A stretch of 64,000 bases of DNA from Octopus vulgaris (lineage: Eukaryota), in NCBI GenBank assembly GCA_951406725.2, contig OX597823.1, positions 114,824,001-114,888,000 on the forward strand, in the 5' to 3' direction. This document shows, piece after piece, positions 17,021-57,484 of this stretch (positions are counted from its first letter, which is position 1; each line of letters begins with the position of its first letter). A model generated the notes under the pieces. It was given only the letters and a program-made list of their open reading frames with translations. It was not told the origin of the DNA and did not search any database. A program made the position numbers and the translations under genes.

Positions 17021-17360
17021 TGTGGCTTTCTCTCTTCCAGAGAAAGTAGGGTAGAGCCCTGACTGACGGTAGAGGTGTTATGTTATCAACTTGGAAATTA
17101 CCGTGATATGTTTTATCTTTTGTTACCAGAGAGCGTGATATATATCGACTTTATTGTAGTGCCCGAATATTGATGACCTTCGTCGAGCAATTGTGATACA
17201 TGAAGGGCGGTTCCAAACTGGAATATATAGTCAATAAGGAAATCCTAGATGTTCTATATCATGCATGGGCAACCTGCGGCCCGCGGGATGCATTCGGTCC
17301 ATGACATGTTGTTGTGAGTTTCTAGGTTACTAATTTTTACAAGCGAAGAATCTTTCTCAA

Positions 17361-18141
17361 CAATAATAAATCTCTAAACGAGATATAGACAGTAACTGCT
17401 CCATCATATAAGGGACATTATCCATTTGAATGTGGCTAGGGACAGGGCAGGGCGGTGGGGGTGTTACTGATGCATTTAGCCCCAGGCGATCATCAACGTC
17501 ACCAGATAGGCTGACACCATCACGGTGTCCTCTATCCTGCAAAGGGAGATCATTCCCCGAAGAAGCGGATGCCACATACGGACCCAGGTTTCAAGGTATT
17601 TGCCTATCGTCAACGTATGGCAGGCACCGCTCTTCGACGAACAACTTCCTGTGCAGGATATTTATATATAGATTTTCACGTAAATACATTTACTGATTTC
17701 GAAAATCTGTTCGACAGCAATAATAATTCTCTAAACGAGATATAGACAGTAACTGCTCCATCACATAAGGGACATTAGCCATTTGAATGTGGCTAGGGAC
17801 AGGGCAGGGCGGTAGGGGTGTTACTGATGCATTTAGCCCCAGGCGATCATCAACGTCACCAGATAGGCTGACACCATCACGGTGTCCTCTATCCTGCAAA
17901 GGGAGATCATTCCCCGAAGAAGCGGATGCCACTATATTTATATATAGATTTTCACGTTGATGATCGCCTGGGGCTAAATGCATCAGTAACACCCCTACCG
18001 CCCTGCCCTGTCCCTAGCCACATTCAAATGGCTAATGTCCCTTATGTGATGGAGCAGTTGCCTGGGGCTAAATGCATCAGTAACACCCTCACCGCCCTGC
18101 CCTGTCCCTAGCCACATTCAAATGGCTAATGTCCCTTATGT
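17361..18141 (-). mobile_element. HHR-bearing non-coding retroposon (family A): 357-bp unit, partial second unit and inverted segments, with 12-bp TSD
   Basis: Period of 357 bp (17371 versus 17728). 17954-18059 is the reverse complement of about 17751-17856, and is partly repeated at 18060-18141. AATCTTTCTCAA occurs at 17349-17360 and 18142-18153. Confidence 0.8.
17575..17619 (-). ncRNA. Type I hammerhead ribozyme, C3U variant (family A)
   Basis: Minus strand: CATACG-TTGACGA-TAGG-CAAATA-CCTT-GAAA-CCTGGG-TC^-CGTATG; perfect 6-bp stem I. Confidence 0.78.
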
Positions 18142-19664
18142 AATCTTTCTCAAATTTTCCAATTATTAACCTTATCATCTCTCACCTAATTTTGTATTTA
18201 ATTTCATCATCCCTCCCTCCTTCAGAGTAGAGTGGGCAAGTAATATTTCATGCATATGTGTTTTATCATGCAGACCTCTCCCACTTGGCAATGGTACGAT
18301 GCGACCCCCAGTTGACAAAAAGTTGCCCATCTCTATTCTATATATAAAAAAAAGATTCTTTGGTGATGAGTGAAACGTATTATTTGTTTATTGACCAGTT
18401 GCATGGAGATTGAGGTGTGGGTAAGCAACAACAACGAAAGTATCAATAATATCGATTGCAGTTTTCTTATCTCTGAGCACGTAATTATTGAAAAGAGAAT
18501 ATATATTTTAGGTATTGAAACTTCAAAGAATAAATGGTTGTCATATCGTGTTACCGCTTGTACGAAATTCGATATGGATGTTGGTTCTATAGTTCTGCAA
18601 TTTGTTGCTGTCATCATAACCCAGACAAAGCTGGAACATCACCATCAAGCATGATCTACTGAAATATTAAAAAGATGACCTTTTCCAAACATTTACCTCT
18701 CAATGAATATTGATTAGATTTCGATCATTGAATCTTGGTTCATTTTGTTTTTGATCTCGTCTCAGTATTTTACATGAAGGTCAAGGTTACCCTTATGTTG
18801 TTTGTTCCGAGAATCTGGTGGAATTTGTAACCTTGATCAGTTACAGCAAGTTTATTGTTTGTATGACCCTTAATTACTGATCAATTGAGATGATAACGCC
18901 TCTAACTTGTTTTCATAATCAGGATCTTAAATCAACTAGTTTTTACACAACTTCAGTCCACTTCTGCAGCTCCGCCCACGCAAATATGCTTCTATGGAAC
19001 CACAGATTCTCAGAGCTGAGCGCCAGCCTCATCCATTTTGCTAGACGAGAATTATCTACAAATGGCTTGGACACTATATTTCTTTCTTCATTAATAACTA
19101 TAGTCACATGAAAGTCTTGAAGAGGAATCAACTTATATCTTTACCAACGAATGAGATTACTTAATGGATTTGAAGACTAATGACTGCTTACGGGATGCTG
19201 ATAACAACAAATGTTCTAGTATTCTGATGTATTATTGTAACTGTACAAGAACAGAACCGGCTGCATCTGCGTTATGCCAGCGAAGCAAACTCAGGAAAAT
19301 GTATTTAGTCGATGACCGAATTAATTTTCCTTAGCGAGTCATCGATTAATATGCTTCTATAATAATAGCATTCTTGATCATTTATAACTGATACTATGGC
19401 CATTAAAACAGCCTACACAACACTACACAACACTAACAGTCAATGAAGGCGACGGTGATATACATTGCATTTCCATAATGGAAACGCAGTACTAGAGCAG
19501 CCGACACGGCATATCGGTGATACAGACAGCTCATACAGTTGAAGTTGAAGCATCATAGTGTGAATGTTTCAGCAACATGCAACGAGAAGCTTTTAGAGCA
19601 AGTAGCTCTGACAGCTTTACAGCCTTTTGGCCATAAGTTGCTGCAATACAACATGATTCTTTTG

Positions 19665-36511: not shown

Positions 36512-37064
36512 CCCTGATGCAGTACCAGGCAGTGGCTCTCATGGCTTCTCATCTTAACTGATTGGAAGTGTTATCACGTACATTGTTTTGTCTTGGTATA
36601 AAAGATGGGCTACAGCAAATATTCTGCTCAATACCACAGATTTGCTCGTCAGTTGCTTGAACTTAACCAGTTGAGCATGTCCCTTGGTGGCTGACGATAT
36701 GTACATCTCTGATCACGAACAGAAGTAGTGGGGGAGCATCATAGCCTTGTGTTGAGAGGGATTCTTTGGGATTTGGATAATTCACCTCTGGAAACATGGG
36801 TGGTTCTTTCAACATCCTTCAACAACTCTTATTCAGGGACCTTTTGAGCGGGATGGGCTACTCAACCAGAAGAAAATTCTAACTGGGCCCCACCTGCAAG
36901 GTCATGTGCTGTTTATCTTGATATGAAATCACCATGTCGCGCACATATGGTTGTGATGCATGTGCCTGGTGTACCCTTATCAGACGGGTAGTCATGATGG
37001 GTATATTGGGCTTCGTATATCTTACCCCAGTGTCACTTTGATGGCATGAACTGCTCTCTCACTC
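36511..37064 (+). mobile_element. Non-coding (TAA)n-associated retroposon
   Basis: Bounded by (TAA)n; its 3' ~315 bp match the reverse complement of 54448-54761. Confidence 0.75.
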
Positions 37065-37123
<59 letters not shown>

Positions 37124-37125
37124 TG

Positions 37126-37159
<34 letters not shown>

Positions 37160-37167
37160 CAATAATG

Positions 37168-37220
<53 letters not shown>

Positions 37221-37227
<7 letters not shown>

Positions 37228-38254
37228 CTGTTCTCAGTATTTAAGGAAGCTGACAAATACAAACAAGAAATCATACCACCTAATAAACATGAAGAAGAAG
37301 AAGAAGATGAAGAAACAACAAAAGCTATAAAACAAATGAAATCCAAACTAAAAACAGAACAGCAACGAACCATGATAAAACGATGGCAAGAAAAGCCCCT
37401 TCATGGTAAATACTGCACTAAACTAAACGCAAAAGAAATAGACAAAGAAAAATCCCAGCAATGGTTGAGAAGCTCAGGACTCAAAGCAGAAACAGAGGGA
37501 TTTTTAATTGCAGCACAAGACCAAAGCCTCCCCACCAGAAATTACCAAAAACATGTAATGAAAAGAAATATTACAAGTAACTGCAGAATATGTGGAGATG
37601 GACAAGAAACAATAAATCATATTATCTCTAGCTGCCCAGTCCTGGCTAAGAAGGAATATATTCACAGACATGACAGAGTTGGAACCTACATACATTGGAA
37701 GCTATGCCAACATTATGGAATAACAACAGAAAAAAGATGGTATAGGCACACACCAGAAAAGGTCACAGAAAACGAGAAAGCAACCATACTCTGGGATATG
37801 CCGATACACACAGATAGAGAAATTAAGGCCAACAGACCAGATATAGTTGTCAGAGATCATGAAGAAAAAAAATGCTTTTTAATTGATGTATCAATACCGG
37901 CAGATGACAACGTGTCTCTAAAAGAAATGGAGAAACTCTCAAAATACAAAGACCTGGAAATAGAGGTAACTAGAATGTGGAATCTGAAAACAGAAACAAT
38001 TCCTATCATAGTAGGTGCATTAGGCATGATAAAAAAATATTCAGACAAATACATAACAAAAACACCAGGACTTACAAACACATATAACATACAGAAAATT
38101 GCACTACTAGGCACTGCCCACATCCTACGCAGAACACTTTCCATACAATAACCATCAGAGCATCACAACAAATCACAGCACCTACCCAAGGCACACAGAG
38201 CTGCGCTCGGTAGTGAAGTGAAAGCACGCTATAAAAATAAAAATAAAACTACTG
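37221..38254 (+). mobile_element. 5'-truncated R4/Dong-type non-LTR retrotransposon in a (TAA)n array
   Basis: RLE ORF tail plus a ~100-bp 3' UTR ending AAACTACTG(AAT)n; (TAA)n on both sides. Confidence 0.9.
37222..38151 (+). CDS. C-terminal part of a LINE ORF: CCHC zinc knuckle plus PD-(D/E)xK restriction-like endonuclease (no start codon, 5'-truncated)
   Basis: CRICG..ETINHIISSC, RHD, LWD, RPDIVV, IDVS, EKLSKY, PIIVGALG, QKIALLGT; about 310 uninterrupted codons. The poly-Ile prefix in the ORF track is microsatellite. Confidence 0.88.
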
Positions 38255-43361: not shown

Positions 43362-43560
43362 ATTCTTCATCGAAAACCGGTGAGTGCCGTACGCTGAAGA
43401 CAGGCAAATACCTAGAAACTGCAGTCCGTGCGTATCACTTAGGTCGACGAGAGAGGGATGACCTCCCTTTGCAAATACCATAAGGGCACAGATAGTGTGC
43501 CTAAAGCCAGCTGGAGACGATGATCTCCCGAGGCTAAAAGCTACAGTAACACCCACCCTT
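43362..43560 (+). mobile_element. Diverged family A HHR element nested in a hAT MITE
   Basis: Reverse-complement similarity to 17460-17640 (HHR, CTCCCTTTGCA, GATGATC, GGCTAAA, CAGTAACACCC). Confidence 0.65.
43389..43431 (+). ncRNA. Type I hammerhead ribozyme (family A)
   Basis: GTACG-CTGAAGA-CAGG-CAAATA-CCTA-GAAA-CTGCAG-TC^-CGTGC; 5-bp stem I with one G-U. Confidence 0.85.
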
Positions 43561-52033: not shown

Positions 52034-54068
52034 ATATATACACGTTTATATAATTTTGTGTGTTAAAATGTTTCTATTTTTGTATATATACATGTGTATG
52101 CATAGATATATGTGCAGGTATCTGCATATATATATATATATATATATGCACATATGTACATGATATATATGAGCATATATGTGTGCGCGGGTGTGTGTAT
52201 ACACATATGTGTGTGTACGTGTTTGTGTGTGTGCCTGTGTGTGTGTGCGCGGAAATTCCTAAATGGAACCACACGCAAACAAATGTGTGTGTCTATGTGT
52301 TTCCGTATTCCTGTGTGGCTCTAGGTCTTTGCTCCCGTGTGCTAATGTGTAAGAAGCGTGTGGTATATAGACATATGTGTCTGTCTATGTGTATATCATT
52401 GTATGTGCGTTTGTATTTCTGTGTATCTGTGTCTATGTAGCTGTGTGTATGATAACATACAGTCATATGTATATGTCATTATATATTAAGTCTTAATAAA
52501 TATTACGGAAATTCTTGATGACGTGTCAGATAGTTTATTTAAACAACTGCTGTGAATGTTTCCAGAATCCGTTTTCCTCGTCGAAACTCATGCAACCAAA
52601 CATTAGTCTAAGCTGTGATTCTAACGATTTATTTTCACAAAATATTGCAGCGGTTACTGATTCTATGCACGAAAATAAACAGTGTTTTATCTGTTGTTAT
52701 TGCTGTTGTTGTTGTTTATATTGAGTTTTTATTGTTAAATAAATTAATTATTAATTATGTAAAATATTTTATACTCTTGTTTTTATAATATAATTTAATT
52801 CCGTTAAATATTTTTTATACTTTATTGCCAAAATATATTTACTTTGAATTATATTTTTTCACAATGTAAGATGCCAGGTGCAATCTGTTTACTATTCGAC
52901 GACATATCTATTCTTAGAATATTCTGGCTACCTGCAAATGACAGGTATCTCAAACCAATAAATATTAAGCAGTAATCCACACGTAAAGACGGCAGTCTAC
53001 TCCTAACGTCAGAGAAATTATTACAAGTGTTCAAGAACCTTTAGTACATCGCCGTGGGTCATCACAGCAAATTTGTATTATTCTTATTTCTTTATTGCCC
53101 ACAAGAGGCAAAACTTAGAGGGGACAAAAGGGACAGACATAGGTATTAAGTCGATTATATCGAACCAGTGCGTAACTGGTACTGATTTAATCGACCCCCA
53201 AAGGATGAAAGGCAAAGTCGACCTCGGCGGAATTTGAACTCAGAACGGCAGACGAAATAGTGCTAAGAATTTCGCCCGGCGTGCTAACGGTTCTGCCAGC
53301 TCGCCACCTTGTATTATTTGTATTATTCTGTATTATTCTGGTGAATTTGAATTATTCTGGTGGATTTTGTACCCCACCTGCGTCGCCTCAACACAGGGAC
53401 AGACATTTAACAGAATTCTGGATAGCAAACCTTCGTTCTTTTCTTTTTTTTATTTGTTTCAGTGATTCGACTATGGCCATGCTGGAGCAGCGCTTTGAGG
53501 GGGTTTTCGTCAAACAAATCGGCTCCAAGACTTTTTTTTAAAGCCTTGTACTTATTCTATCATTCTCTTGTTTAAGTAAGAATTTTCAAAAGAATTCTTT
53601 GAAACTTTTGGCTTGTGTTTAATATGCTACGTAGTGTTTCCAAATGTGCTGATTTATACCAAGGACTTTCCACGCGTCCTTCTAGTTTATATTGCTCTGG
53701 TGAAATCTATTCCACCCTCAGCAGTTCTTTTGTTTGACTGCACACTTTTAGTCAGCGAAGGGACAATTATCAGATACGAATAATAAAGTGAAGTAGTATA
53801 ACTTGTTCCTCCATGGGTGCCGAAATTGGCAAAATTTTATTTTCATTTCAAGTTTATGAAAACTATTTCTCTTTTCATTTTTTTTTTTTTAACATCACCT
53901 GGATGATGGGGATCGAATTTCAACTTCAGCCTAGAAGACGCTGGACAATCCAGTAGAGGAGCATGTGTGACTTAGCGAGTTTATAAATCAATGTGTGCGA
54001 GGAAACTAGCAATATTCAAACGGCTCTAGAATTTGAGTTGATGGTTTGATTTGAACATATTTAGTGGC

Positions 54069-55590
<1,522 letters not shown>

Positions 55591-55952
55591 TTCTTATTAT
55601 TATGCTAAGATCTGTCATCGTATTTACAATTGTTTATTTCCCAGTGATTACGATACAAGCGTAAATTGTTTAATATCATGTTATTTTAGGAGTAACTGAG
55701 AAATCGTTGGGAATAGCAAACATCAAATATACACACAAACACACACACACATACATACCTACATACACACATTCATGCACACATACACACATACACACAC
55801 ACATACATGTATACATACATACATACACACACACATACATGCATACATACACACATACACGCACACATACATGCATACATACACACATACATACATACAC
55901 ACATACATACATACATACATACATACATACATACATACATACATACATACAA

Positions 55953-55984
<32 letters not shown>

Positions 55985-57484
55985 AAATATATATATATAT
56001 ATATATATACATACATACATACATACATACATACATCGAATGAAAGTTGATATTACAGGTATCACAGAAGTGCCTCCCGTTTTAGAGTACTGTAGTTTGT
56101 TTTCTCTTAATTCATGGAGATGGTGATATTGTACATGATGTGAAAGGAAGTTCGTTTCAATCTTGTCTTCGATCTCATTTGCTGACTTGTTCGATGACAT
56201 TCTAATTTTAGGTAAAGGCCTTGTGGAAAATAATACAATCCTGCAAATGTGGAGAAGAGTCTAATGTAGCCCCAGCCAGTATTTTAGATCCTGAAAGACA
56301 GGAACAATTTGATCGTTTTCAGGAAAAAGTGTTCCATTCACAAGTATTTACACAATTTATACAAACTATTCGCCGATTAAGAAGGCGTGTATTCTACTAG
56401 TCTAGGGTGCTACACTCTTGATCGCAAGAACATGCCCGGCCGGAGCCTTGTGTTGTTGACCAAAATACTTTATCTCAAGTAGTTTCAGGCCACACAGCTG
56501 TAAAAGTTTAACCCTGAGACAGACTGGCGTCCGGTTCAAGGGAAATGTTGTGATCTCGGTAACTTAGAAAGTCGGGTAACCGATCCCGTGAGTCCTAGGA
56601 TGCGAAACAGTAATGTCCAGGACTTACTACTGTTTGCCGGATCAGTCAACCATAGATCGAAGATTGAACATATGTCCCCAATAATCTAACCAATAATCTA
56701 CAATATTCTCATAATAAGTAATAACCTTTCTTCTAGTCAAATCAGCTATTCTTGAGTCTTGAATTACATTTTACTTTACTTTACACATATTCACTTCTGT
56801 ACAAAAATGTTCTTTCAACACAGAGAATTCATTTTCTTCACACACCACCCAATCTGACGGCCGTTTTGAATTCCAGATTTTCTCTACCAATTCACTCATT
56901 ACTTCAATCTGAAACTGTCAAATCTGCGAGCTGTATTTCATGTATGAATGAGCTCCGTATTTCCAGCAATGTGACACATACAGGTTTCGAAGAAAACGAA
57001 TTTCATAAAATTCGAAGGTTCCCTATGTATTTATGCCATCAACATGTATTACAAATCTGTTACAAATCTGTAATTGCATTTCCCGAAAACATCCAACAGC
57101 ACTGATGATAGATCCAACAGAAACACTCTCAACTCAATGTTTAAACATACTTCATATTTACATGCATTTCTTTATGTAATCCTTATCGAAACTTGACATT
57201 AATTACATTCACTACTTGTACAATACCTTTCAGAGTGATTTAGTCTATATACGAGGCATTAACATTACAGATATATAGACCAGTGAAAGGATGATAAAAC
57301 GCTGTTGAGATATGGCTTCAAATAAATTTTGGTGACTCTCAGCGTTTTATGACATTTCATTCAATTTAACGTATAGGATAATAATACGTTTCTAAACAAC
57401 AATCACACATCGAAGCACAAATGTAAAATAACAAAGACTGTAAGATGGATCGCATCTAAGAATTTCAAAAAGGAAAGTTGAGTA

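Follow-up and report, generated by a model that had tools for sequence, protein, structure and literature searches.

The window, by which we mean the whole 64-kb stretch of DNA analysed here, contains a MITE at 17260-18335 that is interrupted by a 793-bp insertion with its own 12-bp target duplication. We number the repeat unit of the insertion u1 to u357, with u1 at 17361 and the RNA sense on the minus strand. In these coordinates, the insertion reads, in order, u1-357, u1-215, an extra T, u298-321, inverted u139 to u34, and inverted u127 to u46. The features are as follows.

17252..17259, no strand: left 8-bp target duplication of the host MITE, repeated at 18336-18343
17260..18335, plus strand: host MITE, interrupted by the insertion (short terminal inverted repeats and 8-bp duplication; 42 genome matches)
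17349..17360, no strand: left 12-bp target duplication of the insertion (repeat comparison; empty joint in run X4)
17361..17717, minus strand: complete 357-bp unit, where arm A begins at fixed site A (u1)
17361..17405, minus strand: "tail" of about 45 bp between start sites A (u1) and B (u46), from the A+B ends of the family
17533..17660, minus strand: predicted rod-like hairpin, u173-300, capped by the hammerhead (folding, pairing)
17575..17619, minus strand: predicted type I hammerhead motif, u215-259 (motif scan, pairing; no Rfam match)
17718..17932, minus strand: second, partial unit, u1-215, carrying the rare variant u97A (alignment)
17933..17933, no strand: extra T at the jump, absent from the unit on either side (alignment)
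17934..17957, minus strand: u298-321, resumed past the 82-bp jump over the hammerhead (alignment)
17954..18059, plus strand: inverted piece, u139 to u34, joined via a 4-bp palindromic ACGT (alignment)
18060..18141, plus strand: likely arm B, inverted u127 to u46, ending at fixed site B and joined bluntly to the preceding piece
18142..18153, no strand: right 12-bp target duplication (contigs 18115-18175 in runs X1 and X2)
18336..18343, no strand: right 8-bp target duplication of the host MITE

All coordinates given in the first-pass annotation were reproduced. Specifically, alignment and motif scan recovered its 357-bp unit with a minus-strand hammerhead at 17575-17619, alignment confirmed the flip at ACGT into the inverted copy at 17954-18059, and the duplicated 12-bp word that it had placed on both flanks, AATCTTTCTCAA, lies at 17349-17360 and 18142-18153. 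The loss that it described, of about 80 bp including the whole hammerhead, holds in length but not in extent: the jump removes u216-297 (82 bp), which includes all of the hammerhead but its last base. Unit 2 is 97.7% identical to unit 1 over a 218-nt register (three upstream bases included), and the inverted piece is 100% identical to unit 2, u97A included. No terminal direct repeats besides the 12-bp duplication were found at the insertion (no LTR), no ORF of at least 120 aa overlaps the 357-bp unit, and the unit holds no RT/GIY-YIG frame.

The insertion is real and young. The host MITE, presumably of the hAT type, has 42 matches in its own genome when queried with its right part, and is bounded by an 8-bp duplication both here and in the paralogs L033, L034, and L048. 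Its internal region is present in three of the 20 loci read (L045, L036, and L032), each of which crosses the insertion site once, uninterrupted and free of the inserted segment, as had been proposed for empty copies. Further, in run X4, which carries another organism label, a contig joins 17348 directly to 18142, skipping 793 bases, with 12 letters fitting both sides, a shorter side of 34 letters, and a depth of 47.6 versus 50.5 in the flank. This joint is most simply the empty orthologous site, a close paralog of the MITE site being the alternative. Hence, the earlier placement of the insertion within a hAT-type MITE is backed both by paralogs without the insertion and by the X4 joint. A second joint, 17351 to 18146 in X2 (side 24, depth 8.7), may be a paralog and was excluded from the evidence. 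The outer junctions were also reached by contigs of two other studies, which extend 30 letters into the element on the left (X2) and 27 on the right (X1 and X2), just under our bar of 31 letters for a crossing contig. Both have zero depth at 17935-17944 and leave the internal junctions uncovered; such contigs drop rare paths.

The repeat family and its fixed ends

The 357-bp family gave 126 matches from 40 scored of 1848 first-look candidates, and its full units are 93-100% identical. We read 113 loci, of which 88 were selected through matches to the full unit or the tail and 25 through a pattern that avoids the tail; 50 of the loci were fetched mostly by tail pattern, a selection that favours A+A. 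These 113 loci contain 121 insertions. Of these, 63 are head-to-head A+B, one is A+A, and one is B+B; another 14 are head-to-head but end elsewhere on one side, and the remaining 42 have a single arm. Where both ends of a head-to-head insertion lie at fixed sites, they are therefore A+B in 63 of 65, with site A at u1 and site B at u41-53, mostly u46. The A+A case (L093) is doubtful, as its left end continues to u339, and the 25 loci picked outside the tail yielded 11 A+B and neither A+A nor B+B. The inversions reported earlier at our locus are thus present, but they represent the normal layout of the family. Many loci carry tandems of one to about three units per arm, and the internal head-to-head junction can fall anywhere in the unit. 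The arms overlap at that junction by at least 2 nt in 27 of 64 cases (random expectation, 16%) and by at least 4 nt in 11 of 64 (random, 1.5%), these being BLAST overlaps and approximate.

Targets are mostly TA runs or have TA-rich flanks, and the locus under study is among the few outside a TA run, which is why its duplication and empty site can be read. When 57 head-to-head sites were tested for duplications, with hand-set boundaries, 42 were TA runs, three gave no match, and 12 non-TA A+B sites were informative: 10 of these have 12 bp, and the others have 11 and 13 bp. The first-pass annotation had spoken of variable-length duplications, a view that does not survive this fixed length. It had also suggested collecting further members to define the monomer and the duplications, which gives 357 bp for the former and the sizes above for the latter.

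The arms of a locus resemble one another more than they resemble other loci. Opposite arms within a locus differ at 250 of 17350 columns, versus 126090 of 2854365 between loci; segment divergence is about 1.5% within loci and 4.4% between them (nine complex loci left out). We infer from this difference that both arms derive from one source. At L016, a rare variant is common to three segments, and at L018 variants are common to mirror segments only, a pattern that bears on whether the template was a circle or a linear multimer and would accommodate either.

Several observations lie to the side of this pattern. L084 (4841-5885) is the sole head-to-head insertion in which both ends clearly lie at site B. 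At L008 (1303-1996), two arms have their A ends facing across a TA run, tail-to-tail, and are perhaps two separate insertions in one microsatellite. Elsewhere in the window, another small inverted-repeat element contains, at 43363-43554, a sequence distantly related to the unit (68% over 197 nt). The hammerhead of this relative has the canonical C3-G8 pair, shares the CAAAUA loop II, and is mismatched at 10.1/11.1. Further diverged hammerhead-repeat relatives lie in TA runs (L219, 6076-6313; L213, 738-962), which points to several old branches in the wider family.

The predicted hammerhead and the Penelope-like elements

The motif at 17575-17619, the sole match of our motif scan within the 64-kb window, has a 6-bp stem I, a CAAAUA loop II, a minimal stem III, and a predicted cut between 17581 and 17580. 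Rfam gave no match on the window at the gathering threshold, and hammerhead families were absent even when E values up to 10 were allowed; the ribozyme is predicted from the motif, its pairing, and its conservation in the family. The rod hairpin has a z score of -6.1 (none of 200 shuffles as stable), and the circular fold of the unit, at -108.8 kcal/mol, has a z score of -3.1 (none of 60).

The core of this copy is non-canonical, with U3.G8 in place of C3-G8 and U.U at 10.1/11.1. Across 114 family segments, the motif is conserved and varies at positions 8, 10.1, and 11.1: 51 segments share the core type of the copy at 17575-17619 (U3.G8 with U.U), 27 have U3-A8 with U.U, 21 have U3.G8 with G-C, 14 have U3.G8 with G.U, and one has U3-A8 with G.U. 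Position 3 is U in 116 of the 117 bases at that column and C in none, and a Watson-Crick 3-8 pair together with G10.1-C11.1, as in the canonical core, occurs in none of the 114. In the accessible text of PMC4209133, U3-A8 is a known covariation of Penelope-like elements (PLEs) and G10.1-C11.1 is described as highly conserved; a literature search on the U3/G8 variant returned nothing useful. With such a core, activity of the predicted ribozyme is doubtful, which weakens the claim of an active ribozyme and not that of the family's origin. We also considered run-off from cleaved RNA as the source of arm ends and rejected it, as arm ends are not concentrated at the predicted cut: their distribution over u21-300 is even, with 6 of 150 in u213-222 (about 5 expected) and two exactly at u220, six complex loci being left out of the count. 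Separately, arm ends are scarce in the AU-rich, unpaired u301-340, where jumps land (4 of 150 in 40 nt), which is partly an exposure effect. Among the runs that hold the family sequence, none is on record as RNA; family pieces occur as contigs in X8 and X15, which are guessed to be RNA, and constitute no evidence of expression.

A candidate source of enzyme is present elsewhere in the genome, where many intact 781-aa frames match RVT_1 and GIY-YIG. Loci L203-L218 (e.g., G000:C16:20834500-20843500) represent a young autonomous Penelope-like family rich in such frames. Its tail is about 30-35 bp long, its targets are TA, and its terminal repeat has a hammerhead-like motif with U3-A8. A second family (L219, 2321-5483, and L221) includes a head-to-head copy in which a 766-bp inverted repeat is 100% identical and one arm has a 30-bp tail, and the 3' region of the family has an 11-base word of u311-321, possibly by chance. 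Head-to-head copies with a tail on one arm only are seen at L208, L210, and L219, and the tails of the two families read are about 30-35 bp versus 45 bp in the retrozyme. No autonomous partner or pseudo-LTR with homology to the unit was found among 40 GIY-YIG loci (from 150 scored of 6136 candidates); the one significant match of the unit to these loci, at L219, represents a related repeat that was inserted separately and is flanked by TA. The window itself has no PLE ORF among 14 frames scanned. It does have a 369-aa open frame at 37042-38148 with a sub-cutoff zf-RVT match, probably a LINE remnant, and a very AT-rich stretch at 54001-56000 (GC 0.18), probably a simple-repeat array, in which stop-free frames occur on either strand.

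Routes to the insertion

What we observed directly is the family itself, the two sites at which its ends are fixed, the duplication of 12 bp, the TA-rich nature of its targets, the empty site, and intact RT+GIY-YIG elements of this genome whose head-to-head copies likewise have one tail. The insertion was probably written by a Penelope-type two-arm route. The earlier proposal that a non-coding hammerhead RNA was inserted by a target-primed Penelope-type process thereby gains the backing of the empty sites and of the family ends. Under this route, a Penelope-like RT/GIY-YIG enzyme supplied in trans would copy the RNA into a 12-nt staggered cut, with priming at unit base 1 on one DNA strand and at base 46 on the other. 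Arm A would copy u1-357 and then u1-215, add one T, and resume at u298 past the hairpin; 24 nt on, it would turn round at ACGT and use its own cDNA as template, adding a copy of a further 102 bases of unit 2. Its product would then be joined bluntly to arm B (u46-127) from the other strand.

Published descriptions of PLEs, so far as their accessible text extends, supply several parts of this route. Specifically, PLE insertions have an inverted 5'-truncated copy, partial tandems, a 30-40-bp tail at one end, and a (TA)n bias (PMC8557442), and rotifer examples have duplications of 8-10 bp (PMC3846280). The purified PLE protein cuts and extends both strands, has two internal start sites that bound the tail, and inserts independently of hammerhead cleavage (PMC11167929). 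In the in vitro data of Frangieh et al., start sites showed no difference between the strands (PMC11167929, accessible text), from which strict A+B ends are not predicted. We tentatively suggest, with more doubt than confidence, that a PLE dimer makes a fixed 12-nt staggered cut and gives each strand one start site of a single bound retrozyme RNA; that it copies round the RNA past an uncleaved ribozyme; and that stalling within the 128-nt hairpin makes it leap to the AU-rich foot, with snap-back onto its cDNA as a further possibility. That copying would have no need of cleavage is suggested by the non-canonical core and by arm ends that do not cluster at the cut site. If this dimer reading is true, the locus is a record of RNA- and DNA-templated steps by the same enzyme, and the one-end tail of PLEs is explained as a coupling of strand to site.

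The last segment bears most directly on the two arms. It ends at the family's fixed site B (u46), for which reason we read 18060-18141 as an independent second arm, likely primed from the other DNA strand; the first-pass annotation had the enzyme re-prime here, an account that gives way to arm B. The preceding inverted piece is a different case, for it stops at u34, which is not a start site. Variant u97A occurs in three of 198 segments, two of which are unit 2 and this inverted piece, and is absent from unit 1 and arm B. Given the common u97A and the stop at u34, the balance tips slightly toward 17954-18059 being arm A folded back on its own cDNA at ACGT. The sharing of u97A could instead reflect conversion between adjacent inverted arms; the mirror-image segments of L018 have variants in common as unit 2 and the inverted piece do.

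Jumps that remove the hammerhead were found at three of 88 loci, namely L001, which is the locus under study (u215 to u298), L016 (u204 to u304), and L028 (u156 to u294), and all three land at u294-305, the foot of the hairpin. At L016 and L028, the jump lies inside one arm, which continues in phase across the unit border. Genome-wide, two hammerhead-deletion junctions (L001 and L016) compare with none for one control geometry, a difference that is not significant, from a pattern that is blind to L028; the u215-u298 junction sequence is unique between the two matches. Forward jumps that spare the hammerhead also occur (L093, u103 to u152; L167, u58 to u214). Two simple accounts were rejected: a hairpin skip between paired bases, as u215 pairs with u259 and u298 with u175, and a deleted subfamily, as the three hammerhead-removing junctions differ from one another. 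The first-pass reading, in which a template switch bypassed the structured ribozyme, is plausible, and the hairpin may have caused the 82-bp jump during reverse transcription, although we consider this slightly less likely than not. A later deletion or a repair-polymerase patch may alternatively account for the missing hammerhead.

Polymerase theta-type repair makes templated insertions, and 106 nt is long for a patch of this kind. A host repair polymerase could therefore have written the centre (the T, the 24-nt patch, and the 106-nt snap-back) while closing the gap between the cDNAs, the outer arms arising as proposed and the hammerhead loss marking where arm A stopped. A perfectly matching DNA template lies within 400 bp of each central piece, the joins have 0-4 nt of microhomology, and arm A ends at u215, 5 nt before the predicted cut site. 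The length of the snap-back argues against such repair, however, as do the jumps to u294-305 at L016 and L028, which sit inside one arm, away from any arm junction, and we consider it unlikely.

Changes after insertion, in which a hairpin-associated deletion removed the 82 bp and gene conversion in an unstable inverted repeat made unit 2 and the inverted piece identical, are quite improbable. The difference of about 1.5% among units of a locus leaves time enough, and variants are shared at mirror positions in L018, L085, L095, and L130 too. Nevertheless, the two breakpoints do not form a pair in the fold, and the join has an additional base.

It is very improbable that a single RT made the whole insertion as one continuous cDNA by serial RNA template switches (a ribozyme skip, a flip, and a re-priming), an idea related to the self-priming on an antisense template found in the accessible text of PMC3846280. 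The palindromic ACGT at the flip and the extra T at the jump fit such switching, and palindromes are abundant at PLE inverted junctions in the published text accessible to us; but it offers no reason why u46 should be an end in 63 of 65 cases when the position of the internal junction varies over the whole unit, and the last segment lacks u97A. Finally, an assembly error in a short repeat can scarcely explain the internal rearrangement: the path-dropping X1 and X2 contigs do lack the internal junctions, but they read the left end forward and the right end inverted, which needs a strand switch inside, the contig is chromosome-scale, and dozens of loci show this layout with breakpoints that differ from locus to locus.

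Comparison with known systems

The element is a non-LTR retrozyme, a known class, and its head-to-head layout is known for PLEs. L1 twin priming is one familiar process in which both target strands prime, an inversion is joined by microhomology, and a duplication flanks the product. Its arms are not known to overlap and its second primer site varies, whereas in the present family the two start sites are constant and the arms overlap, an overlap that frequently exceeds one unit.

Among metazoan non-LTR retrozymes, those of mussels are 350-390-bp type I hammerhead repeats with circular RNA (Cervera and de la Pena 2020, PMC7229834), and the class has been proposed to be a non-autonomous derivative of PLEs (Li, Clavereau and Pollet 2026, bioRxiv 10.64898/2026.07.22.740005), in the portions of both sources that were accessible. 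On the same accessible descriptions, the family resembles them in its non-coding 357-bp unit (class, about 170-400 nt), its monomers to short tandems, its one type I hammerhead motif per unit with a minimal stem III, its predicted strongly self-paired RNA, its duplications longer than 4 bp, its lack of an LTR, and the co-occurrence of PLEs. It differs in its core (U3.G8 with U.U at 10.1/11.1) and, in contrast to mussel retrozymes with circular RNA, is described here from DNA sequence. Li et al. count copies with two intact hammerheads as active, as worded in the part accessible, and the present locus has one and falls outside that class. The fixed two-site ends, head-to-head arms, and fixed 12-bp duplication seen here are not described for retrozymes in the accessible text of PMC7229834 or the bioRxiv study; likewise, in the literature searched, mostly without subscription papers and bioRxiv supplements, we found no paper that ascribes to retrozymes strictly A+B ends or a 12-bp duplication of constant length.

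The likeness to EN+ PLE insertions extends to the partial tandem, the inverted 5'-truncated copy, the one-end tail, the (TA)n or AT-rich targets, and the type I hammerhead, along with a PLE protein that has two start sites and extends both strands in vitro, again from accessible text (PMC8557442; PMC3846280; PMC11167929). Set against these sources, our element has no ORF, a tail of about 45 bp versus 30-40 bp, and a duplication of 12 bp versus 8-10 bp in the rotifer examples (PMC3846280). It shares with plant LTR retrozymes (PMC4918200) the character of a non-autonomous hammerhead retroelement; the type III hammerhead, LTRs, PBS/PPT, and 4-bp duplications that the bioRxiv study ascribes to those are absent here. 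According to the portions of the sources at hand, the mechanism of tandem and inverted PLE insertions has been called undefined (PMC8557442), and the return route of retrozymes to the genome is proposed, not demonstrated (bioRxiv 10.64898/2026.07.22.740005). What is gained here is mechanistic detail and not a new kind of system, as the element class and the layout were already known. Specifically, the family offers figures that the existing in vitro system could test, namely a 45-nt spacing between the two start sites, the use of one site on each target strand, and a 12-nt stagger.
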